Source of the DNA: Candidatus Nanoarchaeia archaeon
GTDB taxonomy: Archaea; Nanobdellota; Nanobdellia; Pacearchaeales; GW2011-AR1
NCBI GenBank assembly: GCA_041501125.1
Contig: JBGQNO010000005.1
Coordinates: forward strand, 1 to 42,425
Length of the DNA: 42,425 nucleotides
Direction: 5' to 3'
In this document: positions 4,330 through 32,267 of the stretch, in pieces
Position numbering within the stretch: the stretch's first letter is position 1
How the letters are laid out: every line of letters starts with the position of its first letter
Notes under the pieces: generated by a model
The model's database searches: none
Told to the model about the DNA's origin: nothing
The model's input: the letters and a program-made list of their open reading frames with translations, nothing else
Position numbers and translations under genes: made by a program

Positions 4330-4387
4330 TTTATCATGTATATTCTGGATTATATATATTTTACCACCTTTAAAAATATTGCGATTT

Positions 4388-4406
4388 GTAACTATTTTAA
4401 AGTTTC
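4388..4406 (-). promoter_or_regulatory. 19-bp pseudo-palindromic site 11 bp upstream of TATA (4369-4376) of the wHTH gene
   Basis: Minus strand GAAACT-TTAAAAT-AGTTAC-aaatcgcaata-TTTTTAAA. Confidence 0.6.
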
Positions 4407-4412
4407 TACACT

Positions 4413-5150
4413 TTACTCGGGCTTCTGGTTAAGCAGCGGCACGAAAACATACTCTTCCTTGGTTGTATATTCCTGCAACTTGCCATCTTTCTTGTAAATC
4501 ACCATCGGTCCGGAAGTTCTCGGACAGATAAGAATTCCTTTCTGCTTCAGCAGCTTCTCAGCTATTTCCTTGATTTTGTGCTCAGTTTTCTCATTCTTGT
4601 CTATTCCTGCTGTAATTATGATTTTGTCATATTTTTTCTTCCATATCTTTCCTTTTTCAAATATGTTCTCAGCAAAAAGGTTTAATTTGCTTATCTTTTC
4701 CACATCATGCGGGTATTTTTGTTTCAAAAATCCGCGCAATCCAGCCACATTTTTCTCTGCCTTTTCAACCAGCTTGAAAATTCTCTCTATGCTTGAAGCA
4801 TTTCCAGGATATGTTAAATATGCCAGCAAAGAAACATTCCATCCGCTTCCAGTGCCAACTTCGAGCACATCATCGCCGTCGTGCAGGTCTGCAAGAACCA
4901 GCATCCTTGCAACAGTACTTGGCTGGCTTATGGTCTGTCCGTGTCCAATTGGAAGTGCAGCATCGACATAAGCTTCATCCTCGCTATAAAAGAACTTTCT
5001 GTCTACCCGGGACATTGCAAAAAGAACTTTGTTAAGCAATTCTTCCTCATGGTCAGTCAGCAAAAACCTCAGATTATATTCATAGACAGATTTCAGCATC
5101 TGCTCCATCGGACCAGGAGCATTTTTTATAATTTTTTCAGCATCTGCCAT
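4413..5150 (-). CDS. pcm: Protein-L-isoaspartate O-methyltransferase
   Basis: AYVDAALPIGHGQTISQP and VLEVGTGSGW motifs. Confidence 0.9.
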   Translation of the reverse strand: MADAEKIIKNAPGPMEQMLKSVYEYNLRFLLTDHEEELLNKVLFAMSRVDRKFFYSEDEAYVDAALPIGHGQTISQPSTVARMLVLADLHDGDDVLEVGTGSGWNVSLLAYLTYPGNASSIERIFKLVEKAEKNVAGLRGFLKQKYPHDVEKISKLNLFAENIFEKGKIWKKKYDKIIITAGIDKNEKTEHKIKEIAEKLLKQKGILICPRTSGPMVIYKKDGKLQEYTTKEEYVFVPLLNQKPE

Positions 5151-5233
5151 AATCTTTTACCATCCTGCGAGTTAATAAATATTGCTTGTCATTGAAAAGA
5201 AAAGAATAAAAACCAGCCAATATTCTAAGGGTT

Positions 5234-6922
5234 ATGCAATATTCCGAGCTTGTAGAGGTGTACCAGCAACTTGAGGCAACATCCAAGCGTCTTGAAAAAA
5301 CCAGTATTCTCGCTGCGTTTTTAAAAAAACTGAAGCATGAAGGAAATAAAGAGATAGTTTATTTGGTGCAGGGAAGAATTTTTCCTGACTATGACCAAAG
5401 AGAAATTGGAATAAGCACCCAACTCATCATTAAAGCCCTTGCCAAATCTGTAGGCATGCCTGAGCATAATATTGTAAATGAATGGAAGCTAATTGGAGAT
5501 CTTGGCAAGGTTGCTGAAAAGCTTGTAGAAAAAAAGAAACAGCATACTTTGTATTCAAAAAGGCTTACAGCTGAAAAAGTTCTTGACAATTTAAGAAAAC
5601 TCACAGAATTCATAGGCAAAGGCACAGTAGAAAAAAAGATGGGCCTTATAGCAGAACTTTTGACTTCAGCTTCTCCATCAGAAGCAAAATATATTGTAAG
5701 AACCATACTTAATGACTTAAGGATTGGCGTCGGTACAGGAGTATTGCGAGATGCAATAACAGAGGCATGCTACAATGACAAGGAAATGACAGAAAAAGTC
5801 CAGGCAGCATATGACATGACAACAGACTTTGCCCTCGTGTTCGAACTTGCATGCAAAGGCAAAAAAGACATAGAAGAAGTTGAGATTTATCCTGGCCGTC
5901 CCCTAAAAGTTATGTTATTCTTAAAAGTAAAAGACATAAAAGAAGGATTTGAAGCAGTCGGAAAGCCTGCAGCCATAGAATACAAGTATGATGGCTTCAG
6001 GATGATGATTCATAAAACAAAGAAACACGAGATTAAAATTTTCACAAGGCGACTAGATGAAGTTACAAGCCAGTTTCCAGAAGTTAAGGGCTATGTTGAA
6101 AAATACGTCAAAGGCGACACATACATTTTAGACTCGGAAGCAGTCGGATATGATTCTAAAACTATGAAATACCGTCCATTCCAGGACATAAGCCAGAGAA
6201 TCAAGCGCAAATATAATATTGAAAAACTGCAGAAAGAACTTCCTATCGAAGTCAATGTCTTTGACATTCTCTATTACAATGGGAAAAATCTTTTGAAAAT
6301 GCCATTCATAGAAAGACGCAAGATTATTGAAAAAGCAGTTACTGAAAAGCGCGGTAAAATCAAATTAGCCGAGGAAATCATAACAGACAATGAAACAAAA
6401 GCACAGGATTTCTACAAACAAGCCCTCAAAATCGGGGAAGAAGGTGTTATGATTAAAAAACTTGAAGCACCATACAAACCGGGTGCAAGAGTGGGCTCTG
6501 GCGTAAAGCTGAAGCCAGAAGAAAATGAATTTGATCTTGTTATAGTCAAGGCAGAATACGGCACTGGCAAACGCGCTGGCTGGTTAACAAGCTATACTGT
6601 TGCATGCCGCCAAGGCTCAAAGTTGCTAGAAATCGGCAAATTCTCAACAGGCTTGAAAGAGAAAGAAGAGGAAGGTTCTAGTTTTATAGAACTCACAAAG
6701 CTGCTCAAGCCACTAATCATAGAAGAACACGGACGCGAAGTAAGTGTAAAACCAAAAATAGTTGTCACAGTCAGATATCAAAATATACAACAATCGCCAA
6801 CCTATGGAAGCGGCTACGCCATGAGATTCCCAAGGTTTGTCATGCTGCGTCCAGACAGAAGTGTTAATGACATTGCAACACTTGCTGAAGTCGAGAGAGA
6901 TGCAAGAAAACAGCAAAGATAA
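5234..6922 (+). CDS. lig: ATP-dependent DNA ligase
   Basis: EYKYDG motif I, EGVMIK, MRFPRF. Confidence 0.97.
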   Translation: MQYSELVEVYQQLEATSKRLEKTSILAAFLKKLKHEGNKEIVYLVQGRIFPDYDQREIGISTQLIIKALAKSVGMPEHNIVNEWKLIGDLGKVAEKLVEKKKQHTLYSKRLTAEKVLDNLRKLTEFIGKGTVEKKMGLIAELLTSASPSEAKYIVRTILNDLRIGVGTGVLRDAITEACYNDKEMTEKVQAAYDMTTDFALVFELACKGKKDIEEVEIYPGRPLKVMLFLKVKDIKEGFEAVGKPAAIEYKYDGFRMMIHKTKKHEIKIFTRRLDEVTSQFPEVKGYVEKYVKGDTYILDSEAVGYDSKTMKYRPFQDISQRIKRKYNIEKLQKELPIEVNVFDILYYNGKNLLKMPFIERRKIIEKAVTEKRGKIKLAEEIITDNETKAQDFYKQALKIGEEGVMIKKLEAPYKPGARVGSGVKLKPEENEFDLVIVKAEYGTGKRAGWLTSYTVACRQGSKLLEIGKFSTGLKEKEEEGSSFIELTKLLKPLIIEEHGREVSVKPKIVVTVRYQNIQQSPTYGSGYAMRFPRFVMLRPDRSVNDIATLAEVERDARKQQR

Positions 6923-6952
6923 CTTTTTATAACATATTCTCCTCAAAAGTTT

Positions 6953-8227
6953 ATGCAGGAAAAAGAGTTTAATCCCGGAGATTTTGTCAAAGTTATAACA
7001 CTAAAAGAAGAGCTAGAAGGAACAATTCTAGAGTCATCTGAACAAAGCATAGTTCTCATAAAGTTAAAATCAGGATACAATATAGGAATAAAGAAAGAAG
7101 ACATCAAAGACATCAAGATTATCAAAGAAAAGGAACAAGAGCTGGAAAAGATTGAATTAAAAGAAAAGAAAAATCTTCCAAGCGTTGATATAATAATAAC
7201 AGGCGGAACAATCTCTTCTCGTGTAGACTATAAAACAGGCGCTGTAAAATGGCTGACCCAGCCTCAAGAACTTTTCAAATACTACCCTGAGATTTTTGAA
7301 ATTGTGAATGTCAGGAAAATTAAAACACCCTTCATGAAAGCAAGCGAGAACATGTCTTCTGAAGACTGGCAAGTAATTGCAAAGGAATGCGAAGCAAGCT
7401 TGAATGATTCAGATGTCAAAGGAGTTATAATAACTCACGGAACAGACTTTCTGCACTATACAGCTTCTGCATTGTCCTTTTTCCTGAGAGACTTGAATAA
7501 GCCAGTAGTTTTAACGTACGCCCAGAGAAGCTCAGACCGAGCATCTAGTGATGCGGCTCTAAATTTAAAATGCGCAGCATATGCAGCAATATCAGAGATA
7601 GCAGAAGTCATGCTTGTCGGACACGGAACAATTAATGATGATTTCTGTTATGCAATGCCAGGCACAAAAGTAAGAAAAATGCATGCGTCGCGAAGAGATG
7701 CATTCAAGACAATAAATGCAAAACCTTTTGCCAAGATTTTTCCATCTGGAAAAATTGAAAAGATTTCAGCATACAATCAAAGAAATGATGAAAAGAAAGT
7801 CAAGTTAGACAGCATTTTCAATGACAAAGTTTCTGTATTAAAAATAACACCTGGAGAAAATCCTGATATTCTCGACTGTTACTTGAAAGAAAATGAAGGC
7901 ATTATCATTGAGGCCAGCGGGCTTGGGCATGTTCCAATGTCAGAAGAATCAAAGTTCACGTGGCTTCCCAAGATAAAAAAAGCCATCGACCACGGAGTAA
8001 CAATATGCGCAACTCCCCAGACAATCTACGGAAGATTAAACCCTTTAGTCTATTCTCCAGGCAGAAGTCTGCTGAAATCCGGAGTAATTTTCCTTGAAGA
8101 CACGCTCACTGAAACAGCATTTGTAAAGCTTGGCTGGGTTCTCGCCCACAAGCAGTGGAAATCGCAGATAAAAGAAAAAATGCTCCAAAATTTCTCGCAT
8201 GAGATTAATGACAGGCTGGAAGAGTGA
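6953..8227 (+). CDS. gatD: Glu-tRNA(Gln) amidotransferase subunit D
   Basis: KLKSGYNIG N-domain, TGGTISSRVDY, HGTD, QRSSDR, RKMH. Confidence 0.95.
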   Translation: MQEKEFNPGDFVKVITLKEELEGTILESSEQSIVLIKLKSGYNIGIKKEDIKDIKIIKEKEQELEKIELKEKKNLPSVDIIITGGTISSRVDYKTGAVKWLTQPQELFKYYPEIFEIVNVRKIKTPFMKASENMSSEDWQVIAKECEASLNDSDVKGVIITHGTDFLHYTASALSFFLRDLNKPVVLTYAQRSSDRASSDAALNLKCAAYAAISEIAEVMLVGHGTINDDFCYAMPGTKVRKMHASRRDAFKTINAKPFAKIFPSGKIEKISAYNQRNDEKKVKLDSIFNDKVSVLKITPGENPDILDCYLKENEGIIIEASGLGHVPMSEESKFTWLPKIKKAIDHGVTICATPQTIYGRLNPLVYSPGRSLLKSGVIFLEDTLTETAFVKLGWVLAHKQWKSQIKEKMLQNFSHEINDRLEE

Positions 8228-8228
8228 A

Positions 8229-8579
8229 ATGACAGATACAGATTTAGCCAAGAAAATTGAGCATGAACACGATTATTACAAATTAACTGAGGAAGATAAC
8301 GAATGCACTAAAAGATTAAGAGAAATGTTTAAAGAGTGGCAATGTGATACGTGTAAAAAAAATGGTCCTGGTGCATGCAGTGCCACTGAAGCAAACGCAC
8401 GGGCTTATATTGAGATGCCAGATGGAAGTAGGAAATACTTCTGCCAGATTGGTTGTCTTTTAATGCAGCTTAGCGACCACGATATGCATGCATTCATACT
8501 ATCACAATTTGACAACGTAGGAGATTATTTAAGAAATGCACAAATACCTTATTTAACCGGCCCAGTCAATATAAAATGA
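8229..8579 (+). CDS. Hypothetical protein with Cys cluster (possible Zn binding)
   Basis: ATG 1 bp after gatD stop; CDTC...C...FCQIGC. Confidence 0.6.
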   Translation: MTDTDLAKKIEHEHDYYKLTEEDNECTKRLREMFKEWQCDTCKKNGPGACSATEANARAYIEMPDGSRKYFCQIGCLLMQLSDHDMHAFILSQFDNVGDYLRNAQIPYLTGPVNIK

Positions 8580-8788
8580 AAAATCTTTTCTGGATTATTG
8601 GCATTATTCTGTTAGTTCTCATTTTACTTTTAATTCTCAGAAGTCCAGAAGATTCCTGGATAAAAGATGAAAGAGGTTGCTGGATAAAACACGGCATGCC
8701 TTCAACAACTCCTGATTATGTCCTGGAACAGCAGAATCTGACTAATTGCAGTGAAAATGTTGTTGCAGCTATTCAGCCTGAAGAATAA
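8576..8788 (+). CDS. Small N-terminally anchored protein
   Basis: ATGA overlap with previous ORF; TM segment then EDSW...G.WIKHG.P. Confidence 0.65.
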   Translation: MKNLFWIIGIILLVLILLLILRSPEDSWIKDERGCWIKHGMPSTTPDYVLEQQNLTNCSENVVAAIQPEE

Positions 8789-8794
8789 CTCGGC

Positions 8795-8918
8795 TCGCTG
8801 ATGCTCGCCTTCTTTGTCATTAATATAAAAAACGCTCTTGCATGCTTGATGAATATTGCTTTAACAAAACATGCCGCCCTGTAACCCATCAGGGTAAATC
8901 GTTTCGACATTAATTCTT
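8795..8918. repeat. Family A repeat, copy 2
   Basis: 80 bp identical to copy 1, then GCCCTGTA-ACCCATCAGGGT-AAATCGTTTCGACATTAATTCTT; between convergent genes. Confidence 0.9.
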
Positions 8919-8946
8919 AAAATTATATAAAATGAACAATAAAGAA

Positions 8947-9258
8947 TTATTTCAGCTCAATCTTCAATCCGCCGGTTTTTGCAATTATATTGTAAAACCA
9001 TGCGAACAAAAGTCCGATTAAGCCAAACATTATCATATATATCAAAGCGAATATAAAAGGTGTGGATATTAGTTGTGCTATACTCAATGATGAAGTTGAA
9101 GGTTCAAAACCAAGTGTCTGTTGAAGGTTAGAACTTTGACTGATTAATACTCCGAAGATGCCAAGTAAAAATCCTCCAAATGCGCCCAGAAGAGCCGCTA
9201 TCTTGCCTGTGCTCAATACACCAAGCCTCTTGACTTCCATCTCTTTTCCTTTGTCCAT
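8947..9258 (-). CDS. Hypothetical 2-TM membrane protein (DUF3566-like)
   Basis: EVKRLGVLSTGKI start, two TM, YNIIAKTGGLKIEL end. Confidence 0.7.
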   Translation of the reverse strand: MDKGKEMEVKRLGVLSTGKIAALLGAFGGFLLGIFGVLISQSSNLQQTLGFEPSTSSLSIAQLISTPFIFALIYMIMFGLIGLLFAWFYNIIAKTGGLKIELK

Positions 9259-9304
9259 AAATTACTCATGGCTTTCTTGTTTTTAAAACTTCTTCAGGTA
9301 TAGT

Positions 9305-9323
9305 GTAACTGAGTGGTAGTGAC
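9305..9323 (+). promoter_or_regulatory. 19-bp pseudo-palindromic site 11 bp upstream of TATA (9335-9342)
   Basis: GTAACT-GAGTGGT-AGTGAC-atgtagtaagg-TTTATAAA. Confidence 0.65.
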
Positions 9324-9363
9324 ATGTAGTAAGGTTTATAAACAGGTAAACCCCTATTTTTGC

Positions 9364-10173
9364 ATGAATGAAGTTAAAAAGATGGTAATTAAGCCCAAAA
9401 CACTCGGAGACGGGTTAGTGGGCATTTGCCTAGCTGAAGTTAGGATGCTGCCAGCCAGTTATTGTGTTGTTGGAGGCATAGCAACCCAGTCATATATTCC
9501 GTGGAATTATAGAAGGCCTACTTCAGACATTGATTTGCTTGTGCCAAAAGCTCTGAATTATGAAGAATTCAGAAAAATGATTTCACCTATAGCATCATAC
9601 TTTCAGGATAATGGATATGCTGTAGCTACAAAGAAAATGTCAAGAGCATATGCAATGGAATTAACAGATAAAAATGGTGAATCAATTATTGTAGAAGTTG
9701 CAAGAAGAAATGAAAAGAACTTTGAAAAGCATCAAAAAAGACTTGAAAGAGAACTGAAAAATGCAAGAAAAAAAATTATAGAAGGAAAAAATTTGACATA
9801 CTTTGTTGCAGCTCCGGAAGATATTATTCTTCCTAAACTTGTAAGATGCATTGGCTCACTCAAAAGAGATAGTGGCTTAAGCAAGCTTGTTCCGATGGAA
9901 TTAAAAGGAGTTTCTGCAGAAGATGCAGAAAGAAGGCTCAGGTATATTAATTCATTAAGGGAGGAAGCAACATACTCTCCTGCAGATGCTGTTTTGGCAG
10001 AAAGATTAAGATTTGTATCGGATTTGTATGACATGAGAGTTCTCTCTGAAATTGCAGGGCTTAATCCAGATTATTTTAAAACTGCAAGTGAAGATTGGGA
10101 TACTATTAAGGACAATACTAAGGAAAGAGAAACAATTTTTTCACATATACTGCCTGACATGGGAGGCTTGTAA
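9364..10173 (+). CDS. Pol-beta superfamily nucleotidyltransferase (AbiEii-like)
   Basis: VVGGIA...R.TSDIDL, EDIILPKL, DLYD; start moved to ATG 21 bp after TATA. Confidence 0.7.
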   Translation: MNEVKKMVIKPKTLGDGLVGICLAEVRMLPASYCVVGGIATQSYIPWNYRRPTSDIDLLVPKALNYEEFRKMISPIASYFQDNGYAVATKKMSRAYAMELTDKNGESIIVEVARRNEKNFEKHQKRLERELKNARKKIIEGKNLTYFVAAPEDIILPKLVRCIGSLKRDSGLSKLVPMELKGVSAEDAERRLRYINSLREEATYSPADAVLAERLRFVSDLYDMRVLSEIAGLNPDYFKTASEDWDTIKDNTKERETIFSHILPDMGGL

Positions 10174-10175
10174 AA

Positions 10176-10581
10176 ATGGCACTCGAAAAAAATAATTGTT
10201 CATATTGAAGATAACTCTGATTTAAGAGAGTTGGTCAAAGACTATCTTAAACTGCCTGATGTCAAATTAGTTCAATTCTCAAACCTTAGAGATTTTAGGC
10301 TTTGGCATGTGTCAAATCATGGTGGAGATTTATACATTTGTGATGGAAGTTTCCCTGAAAAGCCAGGACAAGAAGGTAAAGTACTTTGGCCAAGAGTTGC
10401 CAGCATTGTTTCTTTGATAAACAAACTCAGTTTATACACTACAAAAGGTATAATTCTTACGAGTGGTAAACCACAAGCCACAAAAAATTATGAGCCCTTT
10501 CCGATTGTTCAGGTAATACAAAAGCCATTCCAGTGCAGCGAACTAGTTTCAGCAGTAGAAAAATATCTTTGCGATAAGTAA
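10176..10581 (+). CDS. Stand-alone CheY-like receiver domain; apparent frameshift in A7 run near start
   Basis: IIVHIEDN acidic pocket, DLYICD, IILTSG, KPF; ATG at 10176 is out of frame by one base. Confidence 0.7.
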
Positions 10582-10638
10582 TTCTATGAGTCTATTCAAA
10601 TTCTGAAGTTTTAAATATCTCAATTCTTTATCAATTCA

Positions 10639-12078
10639 ATGGAAAACGAGGTCAAATTAAAGTCCGGACTTGAGATACATCAGCAGCTTGACACTAAGAA
10701 ATTATTCTGCGCATGTCCTAGCATTTTGAGGCAGGAAGAGCCTGACTACACTGTAAAAAGAAAACTGCATCCAGTCGCTGGAGAAACCGGCGAGATTGAC
10801 ATTGCAGCCAAGTTTGAAGCAATAAAGAATCTTGAATTTGAATACCAAGCTTACAATGATAACACTTGCCTTGTTGAACTTGATGAAGAGCCTCCACATC
10901 AGATTAACTCTGATGCGCTTAAAATCGCGTTGCAGATTTCTCTTTTGTTAAATGCAGAAATAATTCCATACACTCAAGTCATGCGCAAGACTGTAATTGA
11001 TGGTAGCAATGTTTCTGGATTTCAAAGGACTGTACTAATTGCAAGAAATGGCTATCTAGACACAGAAGAAGGTAAAGTCGGCATTGCAACAATCGCGCTT
11101 GAAGAAGATGCAGCAAGAATAATAAGCAGGCACGAAAACAAAATAATATACCGGCTGGACAGGTTAGGAATTCCGCTTGTTGAAATCGCGACAAACCCTG
11201 ATATTAAAACACCACAACAGGCAAAAGCCACTGCATTAAAGCTTGGTGAGATTCTCAGGGCTTGCAAAGTTAAACGCGGAATAGGAACAATACGCCAGGA
11301 CGTTAATATGTCGATCTCAATCGGAAAAGAGCAGGGCTCAAGAATAGAAATCAAAGGCGTCCAAGAGCCTGACTTAATTGAGAAAACAATTCTTACAGAG
11401 ATTGAAAGGCAAAAGCCTCTTGTTAATGAAAACAAAAGCATTCCAGAAGTCCGAAAAGCTCTTGAAACCGGACATACCGAGTTTCTCAGGCCATTGCCAG
11501 GAGCATCACGAATGTATCCTGAAACTGACATCCCTTTGCTGCATATCTCCAGAGAAATGATTAATGAAGCCAAAGCAACTCTGCCAAGATTAAAATCAGA
11601 GCTAAAGAGCGAATTAAAGGCAGGCGGCTTGAGCGAAGAAATGACAAAACTTATTCTTCAGGAGAATAAACTGGAAGACTTCAAGGAACTCATGGTGATT
11701 ACTAAGAATGCAAATCTCATTGCAAAAGTTTTAGTCTTGTGGCCGCGCGAATTACAGACAAAGTTGAATCTCAAACCAGAGAAAATAAATGAAAAGCTTT
11801 CCTTGGATGTCTTGGAAACAATCCTCCAGGTATACAATGAAGGAAGCATGCAAGAATCCGAAATCAAGCACATTCTTGAGAAAATACTTCTTGGAACTTC
11901 TGTAAGCGAAGCATTAAAGAAGGAAAAGGTCTCTAACTTAGAAGAGGATATCCTAAAACTTATAAAAGAGAAGCCAGGCTTGTCAATTAATGCATACATG
12001 GGCTTGGCAATGGCAAAATTCAAAGGCAGAGTCTCAGGAAAAGAAATCATGGATATCCTCAAGAGGATAGTAAAATGA
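10639..12078 (+). CDS. gatE: Glu-tRNA(Gln) amidotransferase subunit E (short form)
   Basis: GLEIHQQL, RKTVIDGSNVSGFQRT, KRGIGTIRQDVN, RPLPGASRMYPETD. Confidence 0.93.
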   Translation: MENEVKLKSGLEIHQQLDTKKLFCACPSILRQEEPDYTVKRKLHPVAGETGEIDIAAKFEAIKNLEFEYQAYNDNTCLVELDEEPPHQINSDALKIALQISLLLNAEIIPYTQVMRKTVIDGSNVSGFQRTVLIARNGYLDTEEGKVGIATIALEEDAARIISRHENKIIYRLDRLGIPLVEIATNPDIKTPQQAKATALKLGEILRACKVKRGIGTIRQDVNMSISIGKEQGSRIEIKGVQEPDLIEKTILTEIERQKPLVNENKSIPEVRKALETGHTEFLRPLPGASRMYPETDIPLLHISREMINEAKATLPRLKSELKSELKAGGLSEEMTKLILQENKLEDFKELMVITKNANLIAKVLVLWPRELQTKLNLKPEKINEKLSLDVLETILQVYNEGSMQESEIKHILEKILLGTSVSEALKKEKVSNLEEDILKLIKEKPGLSINAYMGLAMAKFKGRVSGKEIMDILKRIVK

Positions 12079-12548: not shown

Positions 12549-12554
12549 TTTAAT

Positions 12555-12632: not shown

Positions 12633-12670
12633 ATTTAAGTTAATAAAAAAATAAGAAAAAGAAAAAAGAT

Positions 12671-23180: not shown

Positions 23181-23244
23181 TGGTAAAGTCAGATAGGCAT
23201 TATTTATAAATTCTTTGATTATTGAATATATAATATAGGACAAA

Positions 23245-24994: not shown

Positions 24995-25016
24995 ATAAAT
25001 TTATTTTTAATTAACA

Positions 25017-25051
25017 GCCAGCCCTTCGGGGCTGGTCTCATTTTCTTTTTT
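25017..25051 (+). terminator. GC hairpin with UUCG loop followed by T-rich tract after ftsZ
   Basis: GCCAGCCC-TTCG-GGGCTGGT then CTCATTTTCTTTTTT. Confidence 0.65.
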
Positions 25052-25070
25052 AATTTCTAAGCATTAAGAA

Positions 25071-25400
25071 CTATCTGTAGAACGGGCTTTTTCTTAATTT
25101 TCTGTAAGAATACCATACATAGCCAGTCATTGTAATTGCTCCGAGTCCGAATATATTTCCTATAAGCAGATCATTAGAGTTTGATGATTGATATGCAAAT
25201 GAAGAGAATAAAGTTATAATTGGTGCAGCAACCACACAAGAAGTTAAATTGTTTAAATCATGCAAGAATTGCCATTGTTGTTCACTCCAGTTTTTTCTTT
25301 CAGGATGCCGTTTAATTTCATGTTCTCTTATTTCTTTTCTAGAATCTTGGATTCCTTCTCTGATTCCTTGTTTTAATATTGCCAACAAACTTTCTGCCAT
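25071..25400 (-). CDS. Hypothetical 2-TM membrane protein
   Basis: 109-aa ORF, TATA-like box ~22 bp upstream. Confidence 0.65.
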   Translation of the reverse strand: MAESLLAILKQGIREGIQDSRKEIREHEIKRHPERKNWSEQQWQFLHDLNNLTSCVVAAPIITLFSSFAYQSSNSNDLLIGNIFGLGAITMTGYVWYSYRKLRKSPFYR

Positions 25401-25444
25401 AACAAAGAGATATAAAGAATATTATTAAACATTACGATTACTTG

Positions 25445-25565
25445 GTTATTAATAAAAAATACTTCATACGCTTAATCAATAATTCAATTGCTTGATAAAT
25501 ATTGTTTTAACAAATCATGCTGCTACTTACACCCATCAGGGTAAAATCGTTTCACCATTAATTCT
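25445..25565. repeat. Family A repeat, copy 5
   Basis: GCTTGATAAATATTGTTTTAACAAATCATGC and ACCCATCAGGGTAAAATCGTTTCACCATTAATTCT. Confidence 0.8.
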
Positions 25566-25575
25566 AATTCAGAAT

Positions 25576-26130
25576 TTAAACTTCCTGTTTCTTCTCGCGA
25601 TACATATACTTATTTTCCCATCTATCCCAGTAAATCATGCCAGAAAGCTCCGGCTTGGGTTTTTGCTTTGTCTTTTCGCCAGCAAATCCGACAGGAAGAA
25701 TTGCTTCAACAACAACGTCTTCAGGAATCCTGAATATTCTTTTAACCTCGGGCTCATGGAAAGCTCCAACCCAGCATGCAGCCAAGCCCGCTTCTTCAAT
25801 CTTAAGAAGGAAATTTTCAATTGCAGCTCCTGCCTGCTGTCTTACATAAACCCTTGCTCTCTCGCCATATCCAGTCACAGCTCTTTCTTCTTTTGAGCAT
25901 ACAACAACAACAAACTTTGCCTGAGAAATAAAATCCTGTCCAGCAGCATCAGCAACCTTGCCGATAGTATCTGGCTCGCCAGTAATCAGGAATTTTAATG
26001 TTTCAACATTGCCTGCAAGCGGTGCGAGATGCGCTGCATTTATTGCCTCAACAACCTGCCTCCAGTCTGGCTTTTTCTTCGAGAATTTTCTGACACAATG
26101 TCGTGCTTTAATGGCTTTGTCAAGTTCCAT
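25576..26130 (-). CDS. Nitroreductase family protein
   Basis: AIKARHCVRKF, APLAGN, GLAACWVGAF. Confidence 0.9.
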   Translation of the reverse strand: MELDKAIKARHCVRKFSKKKPDWRQVVEAINAAHLAPLAGNVETLKFLITGEPDTIGKVADAAGQDFISQAKFVVVVCSKEERAVTGYGERARVYVRQQAGAAIENFLLKIEEAGLAACWVGAFHEPEVKRIFRIPEDVVVEAILPVGFAGEKTKQKPKPELSGMIYWDRWENKYMYREKKQEV

Positions 26131-26160
26131 TCTCTACATAAGAAATCAATATATAAAAAC

Positions 26161-26490
26161 TTAATGTCCAGGTAAAGTCTGCGCTGTCATTTTTTCATAT
26201 ACTCTCTGCAAAACAGCGACTAAATCTCTTCTGGCAATGTCTAATTGTACTTCTGAAAGAGAAAATAATGATCCCCTGGAAAATAACGATCCCATGTAAT
26301 ACTCACATACCTGAAACTGTTTGGCATATTCTAAGCAGCTTTCAAATTGTTTATGAATCACTTTTACAGCTTTTTCAATATGTTCAGCACGCATTTGACT
26401 TACAGGAATTTCGTATGCAACCTTGTCAGGTGATGGAGTAATTACAAAAGGTACTAAGCTTCTATTCTCAGGCTTTTCATTATTACTCAT
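26161..26490 (-). CDS. Hypothetical protein
   Basis: Start moved to ATG 26490 because the longer ORF overlaps tRNA-Asn; TTTTTAAA upstream. Confidence 0.6.
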   Translation of the reverse strand: MSNNEKPENRSLVPFVITPSPDKVAYEIPVSQMRAEHIEKAVKVIHKQFESCLEYAKQFQVCEYYMGSLFSRGSLFSLSEVQLDIARRDLVAVLQRVYEKMTAQTLPGH

Positions 26491-26536
26491 GTCAGCCCTA
26501 TAAACTTCCCGTTTAAAAATGTTATGAAAAACAAAA

Positions 26537-26670
26537 CGTCCCGAGCTGGACTCGAACCAGCGACCCTCTGATTTCAGTGAGTCTACCATAAGTAGATTGA
26601 CTTGTAACAGTCAGATGCTCTACCTGTTGCTCCTCTCAGTTTTTAGCCTGAAAGTCTGAGCTATCGGGAC
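26537..26670 (-). tRNA. tRNA-Asn(GTT) with two introns (26627-26655 in D-loop; 26573-26604 at 37/38)
   Basis: Acceptor GTCCCGA/TCGGGAC-G, T arm GCTGG-TTCGAGT-CCAGC; removing both inserts restores a standard cloverleaf. Confidence 0.88.
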
Positions 26671-26710
26671 TTAAGTTTAGATAGATATGGTTTATTTTTA
26701 AAGTTATTCT

Positions 26711-27223
26711 TTAACCTTTTTCCCACTTTAATCCGAGATCTTCTGGAAAAACCCGTCTTCTTGATTTCTCCAGATAAGCATAAATCTTGGATTGCTTTGC
26801 TCCGGCAATCAGACTTTTAACAGCATTTTCAGCGAAGATTATTCTGTCAGCAGGCCCAATTATGCAAACAGTATTTTCTGACAGCGTAAGATAGCATTCA
26901 GATAATTCTCCAATCAATTCAATTGTCCTGCCCTGCGCTCCAACGATTCTTGCCTTGACACCTGCAAGACTTTTCTTTCTTGTAAAATCCTTGATTGGAA
27001 TTTCTTCAAGAACATAATTTTCCTCTAAAAGAATCAAAGCAATCTCAATAGGAAAAGCCTTGTCAATCGCTTCAAATACTTTTTCTGCAATGAAAACATC
27101 ATAACTTTCTCCAAAAGCCTCAATCTTCTTTCCAGAAATGTCAATGCTAACTTTTAATTTTTTCTCCAGGAGATTCCTGCTAGCCTGGATTTTCCGTATT
27201 GTTTTATATTCTAAAATCTGCAT
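26711..27223 (-). CDS. KH-domain ribosome biogenesis protein (Dim2/Pno1-like)
   Basis: KARIVGAQGRT KH motif, GAKQSKIYAYLE; follows aIF-1A. Confidence 0.85.
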   Translation of the reverse strand: MQILEYKTIRKIQASRNLLEKKLKVSIDISGKKIEAFGESYDVFIAEKVFEAIDKAFPIEIALILLEENYVLEEIPIKDFTRKKSLAGVKARIVGAQGRTIELIGELSECYLTLSENTVCIIGPADRIIFAENAVKSLIAGAKQSKIYAYLEKSRRRVFPEDLGLKWEKG

Positions 27224-27224
27224 T

Positions 27225-27560
27225 TTACAGCTCTTCAATATTTTTCAAATAACCCCTTCTTTTCATCCAGTCAACCTGGCTTGGATTGTATTTGAACAAG
27301 ATATCGCCCTTCTCATTGTCAAACTCCCACGGCTCAACAATTATCAAATCTCCTTCTCTCAGCCATAAACTTCTCCTAAGTCTTCCAGGAACCCTGCAAT
27401 TTCTTGATATGCCATCAAAGCACCTGACTATCATCCTGCTTCCGCCAACTCTCTGTTCCACTATTCCCATTACCTCGCGCCCCTGCGGAAGCCTTACTCT
27501 TGTGATAACCTGCGGCAGTTCGTTATTGCTGCTGTTACGCTTGCGGTTTCGATTTTGCAT
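27225..27560 (-). CDS. eif1a: Translation initiation factor aIF-1A
   Basis: RVRLP, C.DG.SRNCRVPGRL, W..EGD..VEPW, KGDI. Confidence 0.95.
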   Translation of the reverse strand: MQNRNRKRNSSNNELPQVITRVRLPQGREVMGIVEQRVGGSRMIVRCFDGISRNCRVPGRLRRSLWLREGDLIIVEPWEFDNEKGDILFKYNPSQVDWMKRRGYLKNIEEL

Positions 27561-27619
27561 GTTTAAAATTCGGTATTTGAGTTTATAAACCTAATTTTAC
27601 CGAAGATGCGACGGATAAT

Positions 27620-27780
27620 GAATTAATGTTAAAAACCAGCGATGTTTAAGCAGCCATTCATTTACTTGATGAAGATTGCCCCTGTAACCTCGCAAGGTCT
27701 TTGTTTGCTGCAGTGAGCAAGTCCGCAATCACATGAGGAACTGCACAACAAGAGCAAATCAAAGATAGTTAATCATTAAC
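27620..27780. repeat. Family A repeat, copy 6, with nested family B hairpin
   Basis: CTTGATGAAGATTGCCCCTGTAACCTCGCAAGGT then 67-bp insert. Confidence 0.78.
27698..27765. repeat. Family B structured repeat, copy 1
   Basis: Outer stem TCTTTGTTTGCT/AGCAAATCAAAGA; CCGCA..GAGGA helix; CAAGA; resembles 41964-42033. Confidence 0.7.
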
Positions 27781-27790
27781 CCTTAGAACT

Positions 27791-28090
27791 CTACAAAAGA
27801 ATCAGTGCAAACGGAATTCCCTTGACACTCCTTACTCCTGTCTCGTCAACTATTCCTGCCTTCAATGCAGCATCTATGGATTTCTTGCCTACAATGTTAA
27901 AAGTAGCATCGCACTCGCTTGAAAATTCTCTCAGTGTCTCTATCAGCTTTGCTTCAGAAATTTCCTCTCCCTTGAAAAAACTCTCGCGCACATCAAGAAG
28001 CTTATTTCCCTCTTCAAATGTTTTTCCAAGAAGATTCTTGTCGCACACAGCAACAATTTCCCTGTATGCCTTGTGAATTTTAATCAACAT
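27791..28090 (-). CDS. DUF424 family protein
   Basis: IVAVCD..LLGK.F.EG, FFKG, NIVG. Confidence 0.88.
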   Translation of the reverse strand: MLIKIHKAYREIVAVCDKNLLGKTFEEGNKLLDVRESFFKGEEISEAKLIETLREFSSECDATFNIVGKKSIDAALKAGIVDETGVRSVKGIPFALILL

Positions 28091-28126
28091 AAAATGCCAA
28101 ATCCAAAACCCTTTTTAAATTTAACT

Positions 28127-28597
28127 TTAATCCACACTGTCTGCCGATATTGAAGCACATTCAGGACAGCTTGTCCAAACTTGCCTGTCCTTTATTGCCA
28201 TTTCTCTGGACTGCATGCAGTATTTGCAAAATCCGTTAAATCTAAGCGCCTCGTTCTCGGAAGCAAAGACTGCATAAAAATCTGCTTTGCTAATTAATTC
28301 ACTCGCCTTGTCAGAAATTTCCGATAATTCAAGATATGACAATAATTTAGCAGGTGGAAGATTTTGTATAAATCCCTGCATCTCAACCTCGAGTCTCTTG
28401 ACATCCTGCTCAGAAGTCTTAAATCCAATTGTATACATTACTGGAGCATCATGCAAAAGACAATTATGAATCAGCAAGTCATGATTTATTCTGTAATTTC
28501 CAGGATTGCAGAATACACTCTCATCACATCCTTGGCACTCTTCATTCAAAACCCTAAAAGCATCATCAATTGAATTTAATGTCTTTATCTCCCCCAT
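28127..28597 (-). CDS. Hypothetical protein with CxxC pairs
   Basis: CQGC, CKYC, CPEC; own TATA-like box. Confidence 0.65.
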   Translation of the reverse strand: MGEIKTLNSIDDAFRVLNEECQGCDESVFCNPGNYRINHDLLIHNCLLHDAPVMYTIGFKTSEQDVKRLEVEMQGFIQNLPPAKLLSYLELSEISDKASELISKADFYAVFASENEALRFNGFCKYCMQSREMAIKDRQVWTSCPECASISADSVD

Positions 28598-28649
28598 TTT
28601 CAATCTAAAGAAAAACTATTTTTAAAATTACTTATATTAAAGAACACAT

Positions 28650-29207
28650 TTACTTTCCTTGTCTTCCCCATGCTCTGAGGCTTGGCCTGACTTTCATCTC
28701 AGGACTTTTGTACATCAATCCTCTGGATTTCTTGGCAGCACTTGTAAGTCCTCTGAATGCTCTTCCCCTGTTTGTAGATTCAGCTATCCATTTCATTCCA
28801 GGATCATTTGTTATCTCTGGTCTTGAAGGATCTACCATTATTACCTCAAAGAAATAATGCTTGCCATCCTTTCCGACTTTGTAAGAATTTAACACTTCAA
28901 GGTTTGTGAATTTTCTTGCAGCTCGTTGTTCTGCAACCCACTGATAATTCATCTTAAGCACTTTTCTTGTTGATTGCCTAGCTGTTCTCCTGCCTTTGTT
29001 GATTTTTGGTCCCCATCTTCCACCTCTGTTCAATCGAATTCTGACAATAACAAATCCTTTCTTGTCCTTATAGCCAAGATTTCTTGCTCTTCCAATGTCA
29101 GTCGGCTTGTCAACCTTGAACGCGACTGTCTGGGTTCTCCACTCAATCAGCCTGCTCCTGAGATTATTCCTTATATTTTCCTTGATATACTGGTAAGCAT
29201 TTGTCAT
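28650..29207 (-). CDS. rpl15e: 50S ribosomal protein L15e
   Basis: AR.LGYK.K.G, LEVLNSY, RGRAFRGLTSA. Confidence 0.96.
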   Translation of the reverse strand: MTNAYQYIKENIRNNLRSRLIEWRTQTVAFKVDKPTDIGRARNLGYKDKKGFVIVRIRLNRGGRWGPKINKGRRTARQSTRKVLKMNYQWVAEQRAARKFTNLEVLNSYKVGKDGKHYFFEVIMVDPSRPEITNDPGMKWIAESTNRGRAFRGLTSAAKKSRGLMYKSPEMKVRPSLRAWGRQGK

Positions 29208-29248
29208 AGAAAACACTACAAAACTGGTTTTTTAAATGTTTTTAATAC

Positions 29249-30931
29249 TTAGAACTTGCATCCAGCACAGACTGCAACAGCATGTCCAACTTCACCAGAG
29301 TTAAAAAAGTGTATATATCTGACTCCAAACTCAGCATTTCTTGTATTTATGCCCGCACCAACACCAAACCCTGCTGTCACACTTGAATCAGGCTCATTTA
29401 CATTATATTCATCGCCGACTATGAATCTGGACTTAGAAAATAGGCCTTCTAAATCAGTTTCCACATATGTCCCTTGTTTTGGGAAATTTCTTCTTGCACC
29501 TACTCTTACAAGAAAATTTTTACTTTCTGCACTCCAGTCTGTACCATTCTCATTTCCATTTGCACTTGTCTTGAAAATTTCTGCACCAATATTTAATTCT
29601 GTATCTCTTTCATTAGTTACACCAGCACTTAATCCTGCTGTAATCGCTCCCTGACGATAAATATCTGAGCGAATAGGCATAATTACACCAACATTAGCTG
29701 AAACATACGCTTTTGATTTGTTTCTTGCAGTATTCTCTCTGCTTGGTTTATGGACATAAACAAAATTGTCTTTTTGTACTTGTTTTGATATTTGAGCGGG
29801 TATTTCAGGAATTATTTGCGCTGGAGTTTGAGTATGCTGAAAGAACTGGTTCCATAATCCTGCATAATTGCTTATTTTCTCCTGAATTTTTGTCTTTGCC
29901 AGAACATACATTGCTTCAAAAGTTTCTTTAGAAATTTCCTTGCGCATTTCTTTAGGAACAGCAGGGGCAGGTGCATAAATCTCCGGCAGAGGCATCTCTT
30001 GATTTACTGGCTGGTCAGCCTGTGCTGCTGGCATTGCAGGCTCTGGTTTTACTTCTGCAGGAACAGGAAGGACATTTTTATTATAATCTTCTACTGCCTC
30101 ATTAACAGGATTCTGTGCAGTAATATTTTCAGGAACAATTGTCTTTTCAACATAATGAGTTTCAGTCTCTGAAACTTTTTTTTCAAGTCCAGGCTCTCTT
30201 GTAAGGAGCCAGATACCGCCCGCCAATAACAAAGCACCAAGTCCTCCGATAGCTGCCTTTTCGGCTGTTTTTTTATTCAGATATTTTCTTACAACAGGTC
30301 CTTCTTTCCTTGTTGCCTCAACAGTGACTTTTGGAGATTCTGTTAATGCAATATACTGGCTTAATTCATTTTCTGTTACACCTTTAACAATTTTTCTGCC
30401 GTTTTCTTCTGTCTGTGGCTTTCTCAATTCAATCTCTCTAACTGCCTTGGAAACAATCTGTTCCCTGACTAGGAGCCATTCATCTTCAGGTAAATTATAT
30501 TGCTTTAACCATAAAGATGCATTATATGTTTGGTCTACTTCTCCTGCAACACCAACATAGTCTAATACAGGCAAATATCCTACCACTGGAACCTCGGGAA
30601 TATCTTTTATCTCTATATTTGGTTCTGCAGAACCTAATCCTAATTCAGACGCTCTTATAATAAACCTGTCACAGAAAAATTTCATATAATCGTCTTTGCT
30701 ACGGAGATCAAGTGATTTATGACAAGTAAAATCTTCAATAATTGCTTGATGTATCTTCTTTTCTAATGAAGGATCAATATTTACAGACATATCCTCCAAC
30801 TGTTGCAGAAGTTTTAATAGCTCTACTTTTTCCGGCGGAATTTGCTCTCCGCTTATCATTGCTGCCTTAATTTCCTTTAGGTTTTCTTCAATATCCGCCT
30901 TACTAAAAGGTAATTGTAGTTCTTCTCTCAT
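29249..30931 (-). CDS. Single-pass membrane protein with C-terminal outer-membrane-type beta-barrel-like domain
   Basis: TM AAIGGLGALLLAGGIWLL, Pro/Glu-rich linker, eight alternating beta strands ending AGCKF. Confidence 0.65.
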   Translation of the reverse strand: MREELQLPFSKADIEENLKEIKAAMISGEQIPPEKVELLKLLQQLEDMSVNIDPSLEKKIHQAIIEDFTCHKSLDLRSKDDYMKFFCDRFIIRASELGLGSAEPNIEIKDIPEVPVVGYLPVLDYVGVAGEVDQTYNASLWLKQYNLPEDEWLLVREQIVSKAVREIELRKPQTEENGRKIVKGVTENELSQYIALTESPKVTVEATRKEGPVVRKYLNKKTAEKAAIGGLGALLLAGGIWLLTREPGLEKKVSETETHYVEKTIVPENITAQNPVNEAVEDYNKNVLPVPAEVKPEPAMPAAQADQPVNQEMPLPEIYAPAPAVPKEMRKEISKETFEAMYVLAKTKIQEKISNYAGLWNQFFQHTQTPAQIIPEIPAQISKQVQKDNFVYVHKPSRENTARNKSKAYVSANVGVIMPIRSDIYRQGAITAGLSAGVTNERDTELNIGAEIFKTSANGNENGTDWSAESKNFLVRVGARRNFPKQGTYVETDLEGLFSKSRFIVGDEYNVNEPDSSVTAGFGVGAGINTRNAEFGVRYIHFFNSGEVGHAVAVCAGCKF

Positions 30932-30975
30932 CTTACATTTCAAACAGCTAAAACACTATTTAAAGTTTTCTAATA

Positions 30976-30994
30976 GTAACTACTTAATAGTTAT
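30976..30994 (-). promoter_or_regulatory. 19-bp pseudo-palindromic site 11 bp upstream of TATA (30957-30964)
   Basis: Minus strand ATAACT-ATTAAGT-AGTTAC-tattagaaaac-TTTAAATA. Confidence 0.65.
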
Positions 30995-31045
30995 ATCAGA
31001 ATAGATAGATTAAAAACTGCTGGCATTGAAAGACTCAATTCAAAA

Positions 31046-31996
31046 TTATGCTTCTACTTCTTTTGCCTTTATTTCGCAAACCGAACCATCTTCTGCAATC
31101 ACGTAAGGCTTGGCAGAAATATTCTCAGCATTTTTGTAGTCTATTTCAACAAAACTTCCTTTAGAAGGCGAATCTGGATATTCTCCCAGGTTTCCTGCAT
31201 TTACAACAAGTGTTCTCAAGCCATTTGGTCTAATTGCTCCGGCAGCTCCATGAACATGCCCGCATAACAATAAATCAGATGATTCGTCAGGATTTCTTAT
31301 ATAAGCAAAATTTGCCCAGCTTCCATAATGCTTCCTGCTCTCGCCCTTGTCCAGTATTCCAATAGGAGGCACATGAGTAACCGCTACTTCAGGAACTTGA
31401 TCAACTAAAGTATTGTACATTTCAATGTCTGAATAAGGAATCTTTTTTGTAGGAGGCAAAGTTGTAGGAATATCTAAACCACTGCCATAACCTATAAACT
31501 CAATCCCATCTATTTCCCTCGGAACTTCATGAATATTATACTTTCCAAAATAATCAAAATACGCCTTTGAATCCCAGTTTCCTGGTATTGTAAAAATAGT
31601 TTGTGGGAATTGTGAGAATACATTTGCTAAAGCTCTATATTGTGCCTCTGCATTCTTATTAAATTCTTGCTCAGAACCGGTATAATCCTCGATCGCTTTT
31701 TTAATACTTTCTGGAGTATTGATACCTTCTGGAGTATTATAAGATGCTTTAATTTTTTCTAAAACTTCTTTAAATTCTGTGACATTTTGCATTTTTCTTC
31801 CATCTGCCGTAACATTGTCTGTTATAAGATTAAAAGAATATCTCATTACCTTAGCTTGTTTTTCTGCCAGACACTGTCCCAATAAATCACCAGAACATAC
31901 AAGCACTTCCAGGTCTTTTCTTTCCTCACAAAATTTTCTTACAGTATTCAGCGCATTCAAGTCGCCATGAATATCAGAAATATGCAGTATTTTCAT
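31046..31996 (-). CDS. Calcineurin-like metallophosphoesterase
   Basis: SDIHG, SGDL, PGNWD, THVPP, CGHVH; GAGGTGA Shine-Dalgarno. Confidence 0.88.
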   Translation of the reverse strand: MKILHISDIHGDLNALNTVRKFCEERKDLEVLVCSGDLLGQCLAEKQAKVMRYSFNLITDNVTADGRKMQNVTEFKEVLEKIKASYNTPEGINTPESIKKAIEDYTGSEQEFNKNAEAQYRALANVFSQFPQTIFTIPGNWDSKAYFDYFGKYNIHEVPREIDGIEFIGYGSGLDIPTTLPPTKKIPYSDIEMYNTLVDQVPEVAVTHVPPIGILDKGESRKHYGSWANFAYIRNPDESSDLLLCGHVHGAAGAIRPNGLRTLVVNAGNLGEYPDSPSKGSFVEIDYKNAENISAKPYVIAEDGSVCEIKAKEVEA

Positions 31997-32004
31997 TTGT
32001 CACC

Positions 32005-32208
32005 TCATTCAGCAGAACTCTCCGCATCTGCTAGTCTGGCATCTCTATCTCTTTCAGGAACTTGTGTTATCTGTTCATAAAGGGCAATTACTTGTGTGTC
32101 AGTATTAAGCAATTTTCCAAGAGTTGTTAATTTATTCCTCTGTACTGACATCTCTTCGAATGGTGCTGTTCTACTCCTGTTTCTTGGCAGGTATGTTTGG
32201 TTTGTCAT
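32005..32208 (-). CDS. Small hypothetical protein, first gene of a two-gene operon
   Basis: ATG 21 bp after TTTATAAA; its stop overlaps the SD of the next gene. Confidence 0.6.
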   Translation of the reverse strand: MTNQTYLPRNRSRTAPFEEMSVQRNKLTTLGKLLNTDTQVIALYEQITQVPERDRDARLADAESSAE

Positions 32209-32248
32209 ACCTTGCCTAGAATTTTAAGCTTTATAAACCTTGCTATTT

Positions 32249-32267
32249 GTACCTACTTGTAAGTGAC
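32249..32267 (-). promoter_or_regulatory. 19-bp pseudo-palindromic site 11 bp upstream of TATA (32230-32237)
   Basis: Minus strand GTCACT-TACAAGT-AGGTAC-aaatagcaagg-TTTATAAA. Confidence 0.65.

Follow-up and report, generated by a model that had tools for sequence, protein, structure and literature searches.

A conserved 38-bp composite promoter element in Nanoarchaeota and a TrmBL2-like protein as its candidate factor

Introduction

Gene regulation in uncultivated DPANN archaea has been little studied. A contig of Candidatus Nanoarchaeia archaeon (JBGQNO010000005.1; 42,425 bp), analysed here over its whole length and referred to below as the window, raises the question of whether several unrelated genes in one of these small genomes are controlled by a single dedicated regulator. 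Four promoters of the window carry a 19-bp palindrome close to the TATA box, and a preliminary description proposed that they form an undescribed activator regulon, naming as possible regulators a winged helix-turn-helix (wHTH) protein and a TrmB-family protein encoded nearby. The window is contig C5 (42 kb) of a 625-kb assembly (GCA_041501125.1) that comprises 16 contigs, has a G+C content of 37.5% and is 88% complete. Here, we ask whether the palindrome is a genuine promoter element, which protein may bind it, with what effect, and which genes it would control. The analysis yields a cis-element with wide conservation, names a candidate factor and lists the target promoters, and none of these needs cultivation to be tested.

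A palindrome in fixed register with the TATA box

Reading the window in the direction of transcription confirmed the four palindromes at their positions, each 11 bp from a TATA-like octamer (table 1). All are 6-N7-6 inverted repeats close to GTAACT-N7-AGTTAC, with one mismatch in three of the sites and two in site 4. When up to two mismatches to this pattern were allowed, the window yielded six matches against 0.94 expected, and none of 100 dinucleotide-preserving shuffles reached six. Over the whole 625-kb genome, 25 matches were counted; five of these have one mismatch, and contig C5 holds four of the five. The two window matches other than the four promoter sites, at 2417 and 33814, are intragenic, lack an adjacent TATA and are probably due to chance. 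The first of these (2417−2435; GTAACA-N7-AAGTTAC-like, one mismatch) falls inside a 122-aa open reading frame (ORF; 2370−2738) and is itself one of the genome's five one-mismatch matches.

Genes were called crudely as the longest non-overlapping ORFs (707 genes covering 88% of the genome), and 447 upstream regions, each containing 35 nt or more of intergenic DNA, were aligned on their best TATA, which scored 7 or 8 of 8 in 290 cases. In 161 of these 290 aligned promoters, the start codon follows the first base of the TATA octamer at exactly 29 nt. This distance indicates leaderless transcription, so that most genes appear to be leaderless with a rigid promoter-to-ATG distance. At sites 2 and 4, the TATA likewise starts 29 nt from the ATG (at 9364 and 32208, respectively), while at site 3 the distance is 33 nt, measured from the in-frame start codon at 30931.

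The palindrome spans positions −30 to −12 from the TATA start; the centre lies approximately 47−50 bp upstream of the transcription start, and four bases separate the proximal edge from the B recognition element (BRE). The sequence logo of the 290 promoters shows an A-rich BRE at −7 to −3 and zero information at −30 to −12, so the element is not a generic promoter sequence. This bears out the earlier impression that the motif is missing from housekeeping promoters, and the housekeeping genes of the window are indeed without it. Among the 290 promoters, the palindrome (up to two mismatches) begins 30 bp before the TATA in five and 29 bp before it in two, with either zero or one promoter at any other offset from −60 to −6. 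The proximal half-site AGTNAC ends 10, 11 or 12 bp before the TATA in four, five and three promoters, respectively, and each of the other spacings from 0 to 44 was seen at most twice. A lack of positional bias, or a frequency at the level of shuffled DNA, had been named as the outcome that would count against a regulon; what was found is a sharp peak of offsets and an abundance that no shuffle matched.

Sites of like geometry are also present on C1, C3 (two), C4 (two), C9, C16, C2 and C14, the last as a half-site only, and about 12−17 promoters carry the element in this genome. Pairwise identity among 10 sites was 0.61 for the palindrome and 0.61 for the spacer between palindrome and TATA, against 0.29 and 0.34 for the 40-nt flanks. 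As similarity ends at 38 bp, with the flanks at random level, the element is not a dispersed repeat. These data support a regulon of several promoters with a real positional cis-element upstream of BRE/TATA, as first proposed.

Conservation of the composite element

The element is best described as a composite promoter of 38 bp, consisting of an imperfect palindrome (RTWACT-N7-AGTWAC), a spacer (AAATAGAAAGR) that holds the BRE, and a TATA box (TTTAWAWA). The spacer is usually 11 bp long, sometimes 10 or 12, and the proximal half-site is extended to ARTAGTWAC. The pattern GTNACT-N7-AGTNAC-N11-TTTAWAWA (up to two mismatches) was found in 28 of the 31 genomes of the order, with 121 matches compared to 15 for the reversed control. 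This pattern itself selects for a palindrome, so the search was repeated with only AGTWAC, N11 and the TATA fixed, leaving the distal half free. Of the 62 matches obtained (reversed control 22), 58 were outside this genome. Across these 58 sites in relatives, the free distal half had T at position 2 of the 38-bp block in 43 sites, A at position 4 in 41, C (34) or T (22) at position 5, and T at position 6 in 48. Positions 11−13 were A in 55 sites, G in 36 or A in 22, and T in 44, and each base of the spacer AAATAGAAAGR was kept in 38−54 sites. The distal half-site is therefore genuine but weaker than the proximal half, and the BRE-containing spacer is conserved along with the palindrome.

When 101 genomes sampled across the class were searched, 49 had a match; these were concentrated in some families, with others at control level. 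Related metagenome-assembled genomes (MAGs) carry the names Candidatus Woesearchaeota, Pacearchaeota, Nanoarchaeota and Nanoarchaeia, and hundreds of promoters carry the element across a large clade of Woesearchaeota/Pacearchaeota-type Nanoarchaeota. The element was not found described in the available portions of the full-text literature on DPANN promoter motifs or on TrmB in Woesearchaeota, Pacearchaeota or Nanoarchaeota, a scope that leaves out subscription journals and supplements; within these bounds, the claim that it is undescribed holds.

A TrmBL2-like paralogue as the candidate factor

A 38-bp position weight matrix (PWM) was built from the relatives' sites and scanned over this genome. 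This revealed a new site at C16:743 (minus strand), 29 nt upstream of a TrmB-family gene that we term paralogue A. The gene is cut by the contig end in this genome (table 1); the full-length protein has approximately 259 aa, and the motif also stands directly upstream of the orthologous genes of three other genera. Paralogue A has a PF01978 winged helix (E = 4.7e-18) and a partial PF11495 match (E = 1.1e-5; profile positions 6−125 of 233), and its closest solved relative is TrmBL2 (E = 1.9e-17 over residues 4−158). Proteins of this type, paralogue A among them, are encoded in all 31 genomes of the order, nearly all of which have exactly two such paralogues, A and B. All 16 aligned paralogue A sequences share the recognition helix VPRSRxYDVL without variation; the helix contains a Tyr-Asp pair, which is named as DNA-binding in excerpts of a review of the TrmB family (PMC4158304).

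Upstream regions of 520 nt were scanned flexibly with a palindrome matrix and a BRE/TATA matrix separated by a spacer of 10−13. Within the order, the motif was found upstream of paralogue A with a good score in 14 of 29 loci and a moderate one in six more. Further named MAGs had it in 43 of 76 paralogue A loci (score of at least 15). The same scan gave no hit in 80 control gene-body regions and one in 21 paralogue B loci.

The motif also tracks the number of TrmBL2-like paralogues, counted per genome at E ≤ 1e-20 in the 101 genomes of the class. In all, 108 motif matches (3.7 per genome; reversed control 17) came from the 29 genomes with two or more paralogues, 40 (0.6 per genome; control 46) from the 67 genomes with one, and none (control 10) from the five without any. 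At least two motif matches were present in 21 of the 29 genomes with at least two paralogues compared to nine of the other 72 (Fisher p = 9e-9, a value that is overstated because kinship was ignored). For a quick tree, both paralogues of 10 two-paralogue genomes from other families were combined with 20 single copies, counting the motif at a score of at least 19. It was present upstream of five of the 10 non-B (A-type) paralogues, none of the 10 B-clade members and two of the 20 single copies. In the SH-like approximate likelihood-ratio test (SH-aLRT), support was 95 for the B clade, 95 for the main A clade and 88 for a second motif-bearing group.

A separate feature of the paralogue A loci is a small ORF of 53−137 aa that lies between the motif promoter and paralogue A in 21 MAG loci (within L198−L273; L015:1560−1829). 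These ORFs usually end 1 nt before the start of paralogue A or overlap it. They are mutually unlike, with two similar pairs only, and none was matched in this genome.

Other candidate regulators

The two regulators put forward in the preliminary description gained no support from comparison with relatives. The 88-aa wHTH protein downstream of site 1 has orthologues in 28 of 31 genomes (62−79% identity), single-copy in 27 of those 28, a degree of conservation that is unusual for this group. It was rejected as an autoregulated factor, as the motif lies upstream in none of the 28 relatives' loci and only this genome has it; instead of regulating specific genes, the protein may belong to the core chromatin or bind DNA in a general manner. 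For the 235-aa TrmB paralogue of the window, the motif was upstream in none of 30 loci, which gives this candidate no support; the TrmB paralogue for which there is evidence is the one on C16. Proteins of the 235-aa type had from 0 to 13 matches per genome among relatives (E ≤ 1e-5), and such strong variation in copy number suggests a lineage-specific expansion of this regulator group.

Paralogue B was also set aside, the single motif among its 21 loci having a palindrome score of −0.1. In the 75 nt upstream of paralogue B genes (loci L276−L295), the promoters are without the palindrome, and many have a conserved TTCACTC-like box roughly 15−25 nt upstream of a TTTAAA-type TATA. This box may be a different operator or a lone half-site.

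Four proteins of this genome exceed the Pfam cut-off for PF01978, and there are two other wHTH proteins besides. The Lrp/AsnC domain PF01037 had no match in the 88%-complete genome and was matched in 11 of 14 control genomes, so a factor of the Ptr2 type is excluded on membership. One TFB frame, of 374 aa and with both cyclin repeats, and one TBP frame were present, and no second TFB or TBP was found in the 88%-complete assembly, making an alternative basal factor unlikely.

Proposed activation from an upstream operator

Given an element of fixed register and wide conservation that is present in the promoter of paralogue A and co-occurs with paralogue number, the explanation we favour is that the palindromes are the operators of one factor, likeliest paralogue A, which would activate from its upstream position; we regard this full statement as evenly balanced between right and wrong. 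On this account, a single sequence-specific transcription factor would recognize the four palindromes within the 38-bp composite promoter. A dimer of paralogue A would sit one turn of the helix upstream of the BRE, in fixed register with TFB/TBP, and would activate by aiding TFB/TBP assembly. Where a site overlaps the TATA or the transcription start, the same protein would repress. That the spacing hardly varies points to a stereospecific contact with TFB/TBP, and hence favours activation from upstream. Position is the one clue to activation: of the activator first proposed, the upstream location stands, and the sign of regulation read from it is put in question by the strong BRE regions described below.

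One site has a repressor-type position. In the palindrome GTCACT-ATTTAAA-AGTAAC at C10:13040−13058 (locus L006), 20 nt upstream of an orphan gene (160 aa, weak FHA match), the TATA-like sequence is the palindrome's own spacer. At paralogue A itself, a second half-site lies 13−26 nt after the TATA start in 11 of 41 promoters compared to one of 57 other motif promoters. Taken together with the two modes of action known for the family, these sites fit a dual regulator.

Several observations weigh against activation by paralogue A. The protein was picked out as the binder from sequence, a point that equally favours a different binder. Nine of the 29 loci of the order and 33 of the 76 loci of further MAGs have no motif in the 520 nt preceding paralogue A, and two single-paralogue genomes (G067 and G094) carry the motif upstream of their sole copy. 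The co-occurrence statistic treats related genomes as independent, and the quick tree has many open deeper forks. The asymmetry of the palindrome, with a much weaker distal half, means that binding might not be by a symmetric dimer. Site 1 is atypical in two ways: its TATA starts 47 nt from the ATG at 4329, compared to the genome norm of 29 nt, and the site is not kept upstream of the orthologues of the wHTH gene. A second TATA-like box (table 1) stands at exactly the canonical 29 nt from the start codon of this gene, which may have two promoters; alternatively, site 1 may be recent or weak. Promoters rescued by activators of the Ptr2/TFB-RF1 type have a weak TATA or BRE. The BRE regions here are, by contrast, better than average (mean score 3.84 for ten motif promoters against 1.65 for 280 others, p = 1.5e-4), which argues mildly against simple activation. 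Finally, TrmBL2 is described in excerpts of PMC3031468 as an abundant chromatin protein and global repressor that binds coding and intergenic DNA and for which no consensus site was found, whereas we infer a specific 19-bp site at a fixed promoter position.

Alternative explanations

The strongest rival keeps the factor and the site and reverses the sign. A TrmBL2-like repressor or silencer would block TFB or spread over a strong core promoter, and the accessory genes and the factor's own gene would stay off until a signal releases the protein. Although we think this doubtful, the better-than-average BRE, together with the role of TrmBL2 in Thermococcus as a DNA-coating global repressor (excerpts of PMC3031468), makes it a serious contender. 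With their near-consensus BRE and TATA, the motif promoters should be strong when free, and tight repression is plausible for toxin-like targets (AbiEii-like and Fic). The palindrome that overlaps its TATA at C10:13040 and the second half-sites between TATA and start at paralogue A promoters point in the same direction. However, a steric block needs no exact spacing, yet 11 (or 10 or 12) bp are kept at nearly all sites, and sites of the TrmB family upstream of BRE/TATA go with activation in excerpts of PMC4158304.

It is unlikely, in our view, that the operator is genuine and belongs to a different binder, be it the 88-aa wHTH protein, a 235-aa TrmB paralogue, paralogue B or an unrecognized factor, with paralogue A as just another target. 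Site 1 does lie upstream of the wHTH gene in this genome, four TrmB members exceed the Pfam cut-off alongside two other wHTH proteins, and the true factor may be missing from an assembly that is 88% complete. Set against this are the loci surveyed in relatives, where the motif is upstream of the wHTH gene, the 235-aa TrmB gene and paralogue B in 0/28, 0/30 and 1/21 cases, and the way in which motif abundance tracks the second TrmBL2-like paralogue.

Very unlikely is a third explanation that dispenses with a dedicated factor and takes the 38-bp block as an extended, very strong core promoter, akin to an UP element, for TFB, TBP, TFE or RNA polymerase. It would account for the co-conservation of spacer and BRE with the palindrome, for the above-average BRE scores and for a proximal half that is much stronger than the distal one. 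Nevertheless, the distal half-site emerged in the unbiased test, the targets are accessory and not highly expressed housekeeping genes, and single-paralogue lineages, whose basal machinery is the same, lack the element; with one TFB, one TBP and generic promoters that lack the element, this machinery has no need of it. A mobile origin, with the block as the terminus of a gene cassette or other repeat that brings its own promoter and spread by transposition or recombination, is barely credible: the targets are non-orthologous orphans, unrelated small ORFs intervene between the motif promoter and paralogue A in 21 loci and sites 3 and 4 adjoin a tRNA gene, but similarity stops at 38 bp with flanks at random level, no second boundary or recombinase was seen, and the block is conserved at the orthologous paralogue A promoter across families.

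Returning to paralogue A as an upstream activator, a broader evolutionary reading may be offered tentatively. A duplication of the gene for a TrmBL2-like chromatin protein could have given rise to a sequence-specific master regulator with a portable 38-bp promoter, providing DPANN archaea of the Woesearchaeota/Pacearchaeota type with a dedicated channel for a fast-turnover accessory genome and a single switch for host interaction or defence. Orphans, AbiEii- and Fic-type toxin-like genes, GGDEF proteins, wall-lytic enzymes and surface proteins would make up this accessory genome, and they would have joined the regulon by promoter capture. In many genomes, an unrelated and hypervariable small ORF would be translationally coupled to the regulator. 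If the link between paralogue A and the motif is true, sequence specificity is within the reach of a TrmBL2-type protein, a common control governs the orphan genes of these tiny genomes, and the motif is a practical marker for conditionally expressed accessory genes in hundreds of MAGs.

Comparison with known systems

Excerpts of the TrmB review (PMC4158304) give TACT-N3-AGTA, TATCAC-N5-GTGATA and TACT-N7-8-GAGTA as operators of the family, with activation from sites upstream of BRE/TATA and repression from sites at or after it, and cite Ptr2, which contacts TBP, and TFB-RF1, which contacts TFB, as models for activation. We compared the element with the TGM (TATCAC-N5-GTGATA) of TrmBL1/Tgr in Thermococcales and with the TACT-N7-8-GAGTA site of TrmB (VNG1451C) in Halobacterium salinarum. 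As in these regulons, the site is an inverted repeat; its half-sites, of the ACT/AGT type, resemble the published ones without being identical to them, the proximal halves in relatives being AGTA in 32 and AGTT in 26 of the 58 sites. The site again lies upstream of BRE/TATA at most targets and over the TATA or start at few, and the candidate factor has a PF01978 winged helix with a Tyr-Asp pair. Half-site and spacing differ (GTWACT-N7-AGTWAC), as do the fixed register to the TATA (11 ± 1 bp) with its co-conserved BRE spacer, the targets, which are orphan accessory genes and not genes of sugar or central metabolism, and the candidate factor, which has a partial PF11495 match and not the full sugar-binding domain.

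With TrmBL2 (TK0471/P. furiosus; PDB 5bpd, 5box and 5bqt), paralogue A shares a length of approximately 260 aa and the same domain layout; the genomes studied here differ in having two such paralogues, only one of which is tied to the motif. In common with Ptr2 (an Lrp-family protein of M. jannaschii) and TFB-RF1 (P. furiosus), the site is directly upstream of BRE/TATA, with TBP or TFB in reach; unlike in the case of Ptr2, no Lrp/AsnC domain was found in this genome. The element is thus probably an archaeal wHTH operator of the TrmB family upstream of BRE/TATA, set apart by its fixed register, co-conserved BRE, orphan targets and TrmBL2-like candidate factor.

Genes downstream of the element

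Features of the window, along with paralogue A, are collected in table 1. Two of the functions assigned earlier to the window's targets were retained, the phosphoesterase as it stood and the nucleotidyltransferase with a narrower label, AbiEii/DUF6036-like. The other two were dropped. Pfam gave no hint of a receiver domain in the 116-aa ORF, and the 560-aa protein, previously thought to be a beta-barrel-like surface protein, has neither a Pfam match nor a hydrophobic N-terminus; its Atlas look-up reached only 0.88, and a recognition of 2246, below 2300, makes that lead sub-threshold.

Table 1. Coordinates of the composite sites, their downstream genes and the TrmB-family genes discussed in the text. 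Positions are those of the window unless a contig is given.
Feature	Coordinates	Strand	Details
Site 1 composite	4369..4406	−	Palindrome GAAACT-N7-AGTTAC 4388−4406; spacer aaatcgcaata 4377−4387; TATA-like TTTTTAAA 4369−4376; 38-bp PWM 30.3
Site 2 composite	9305..9342	+	Palindrome GTAACT-N7-AGTGAC 9305−9323; spacer atgtagtaagg; TATA TTTATAAA 9335−9342; 0 mismatches to composite pattern
Site 3 composite	30957..30994	−	Palindrome ATAACT-N7-AGTTAC 30976−30994; spacer tattagaaaac; TATA TTTAAATA 30957−30964; PWM 36.2
Site 4 composite	32230..32267	−	Palindrome GTCACT-N7-AGGTAC 32249−32267; spacer aaatagcaagg; TATA TTTATAAA 32230−32237; PWM 38.1
Second TATA-like box TATATATA	4351..4358	−	Upstream of the 88-aa winged-helix gene
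88-aa winged-helix protein	4063..4329	−	Downstream of site 1; Pfam HTH_27, E = 1.3e-4
AbiEii/DUF6036-like nucleotidyltransferase, 269 aa	9364..10173	+	Site 2 target; Pfam DUF6036 and NTP_transf_5, both weak; Atlas first match 0.98, AbiEii-type clusters
116-aa ORF	10231..10581	+	Follows the nucleotidyltransferase gene and may be co-transcribed with it; no Pfam family at E ≤ 0.01
560-aa orphan protein	29249..30931	−	Site 3 target; no Pfam match
Site 4 target operon	31046..32208	−	67-aa ORF 32005−32208 (no family) and metallophosphoesterase 31046−31996 (Metallophos, E = 8.7e-12)
TrmB paralogue of the window, 235 aa	35762..36469	−	PF01978, E = 4.6e-16; not linked to motif
Paralogue A	C16:2−721	−	Cut by contig end

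Both the 560-aa protein and the 160-aa protein on C10 are present in only one of the 31 genomes. The C-terminal 172 aa of the former are 45% identical to a paralogous stretch at C1:31385−31906, in a frame of approximately 220 aa that directly follows an fn3 gene as the second gene of a motif-driven operon; two units of the regulon thus share a domain. Targets elsewhere in this genome are the fn3 protein, a PHP-associated protein and proteins of 166, 192 and 155 aa without a family, to which a C25 peptidase with Ig domains (three mismatches) and a cell-wall hydrolase (half-site only) can be added.

In the relatives, an ORF of at least 30 aa starts 18−99 nt after the TATA start at 53 of the 58 sites, most of them at 29 nt. 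No Pfam family (E ≤ 0.001) could be assigned to 36 of these 53 targets. Those with an assignment include a peptidase M23, SLT, AbiEii and Fic proteins, two M78 peptidases, two GGDEF-GAF proteins, a histidine phosphatase, an APH-type kinase, CARDB/DUF11/PEP-CTERM proteins and one TrmB regulator. Only two similar pairs (E ≤ 1e-4) were found among 66 targets, which rules out a conserved orthologous regulon, and a hydrophobic N-terminal segment in just nine of the 66 rules out a secretome or surface regulon as the general reading. Since the targets are orphans and dissimilar to one another, the regulon is defined by its promoter and not by orthologous genes, and its content is mostly lineage-specific and accessory. 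With targets this heterogeneous, the host-contact or life-stage program first suggested is a speculative reading.

Sites 3 and 4 have a distinctive setting. A tRNA gene (32351−32427) lies approximately 85 nt upstream of site 4, and the units driven by sites 4 and 3 are located between this gene and the gene for ribosomal protein L15e. In five relatives, no ORF flanking rpl15e matched the window genes, the synteny being too scrambled to judge an insertion. A look-up of RNA runs for 29000−33000 of the window gave none.

The site with the highest 38-bp matrix score in the genome (42.6) has no ORF of 30 aa or longer under its control. It belongs to a stretch on contig C9 (C9:13243−13400; locus L005:3044−3200) that is unique in the genome and had no match in an Rfam search at E ≤ 1. 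The 103 nt that follow the TATA are predicted to form a long hairpin (−34.3 kcal/mol, z = −5.7), equalled by none of 200 shuffles, and the stretch may encode a small RNA under the same control.

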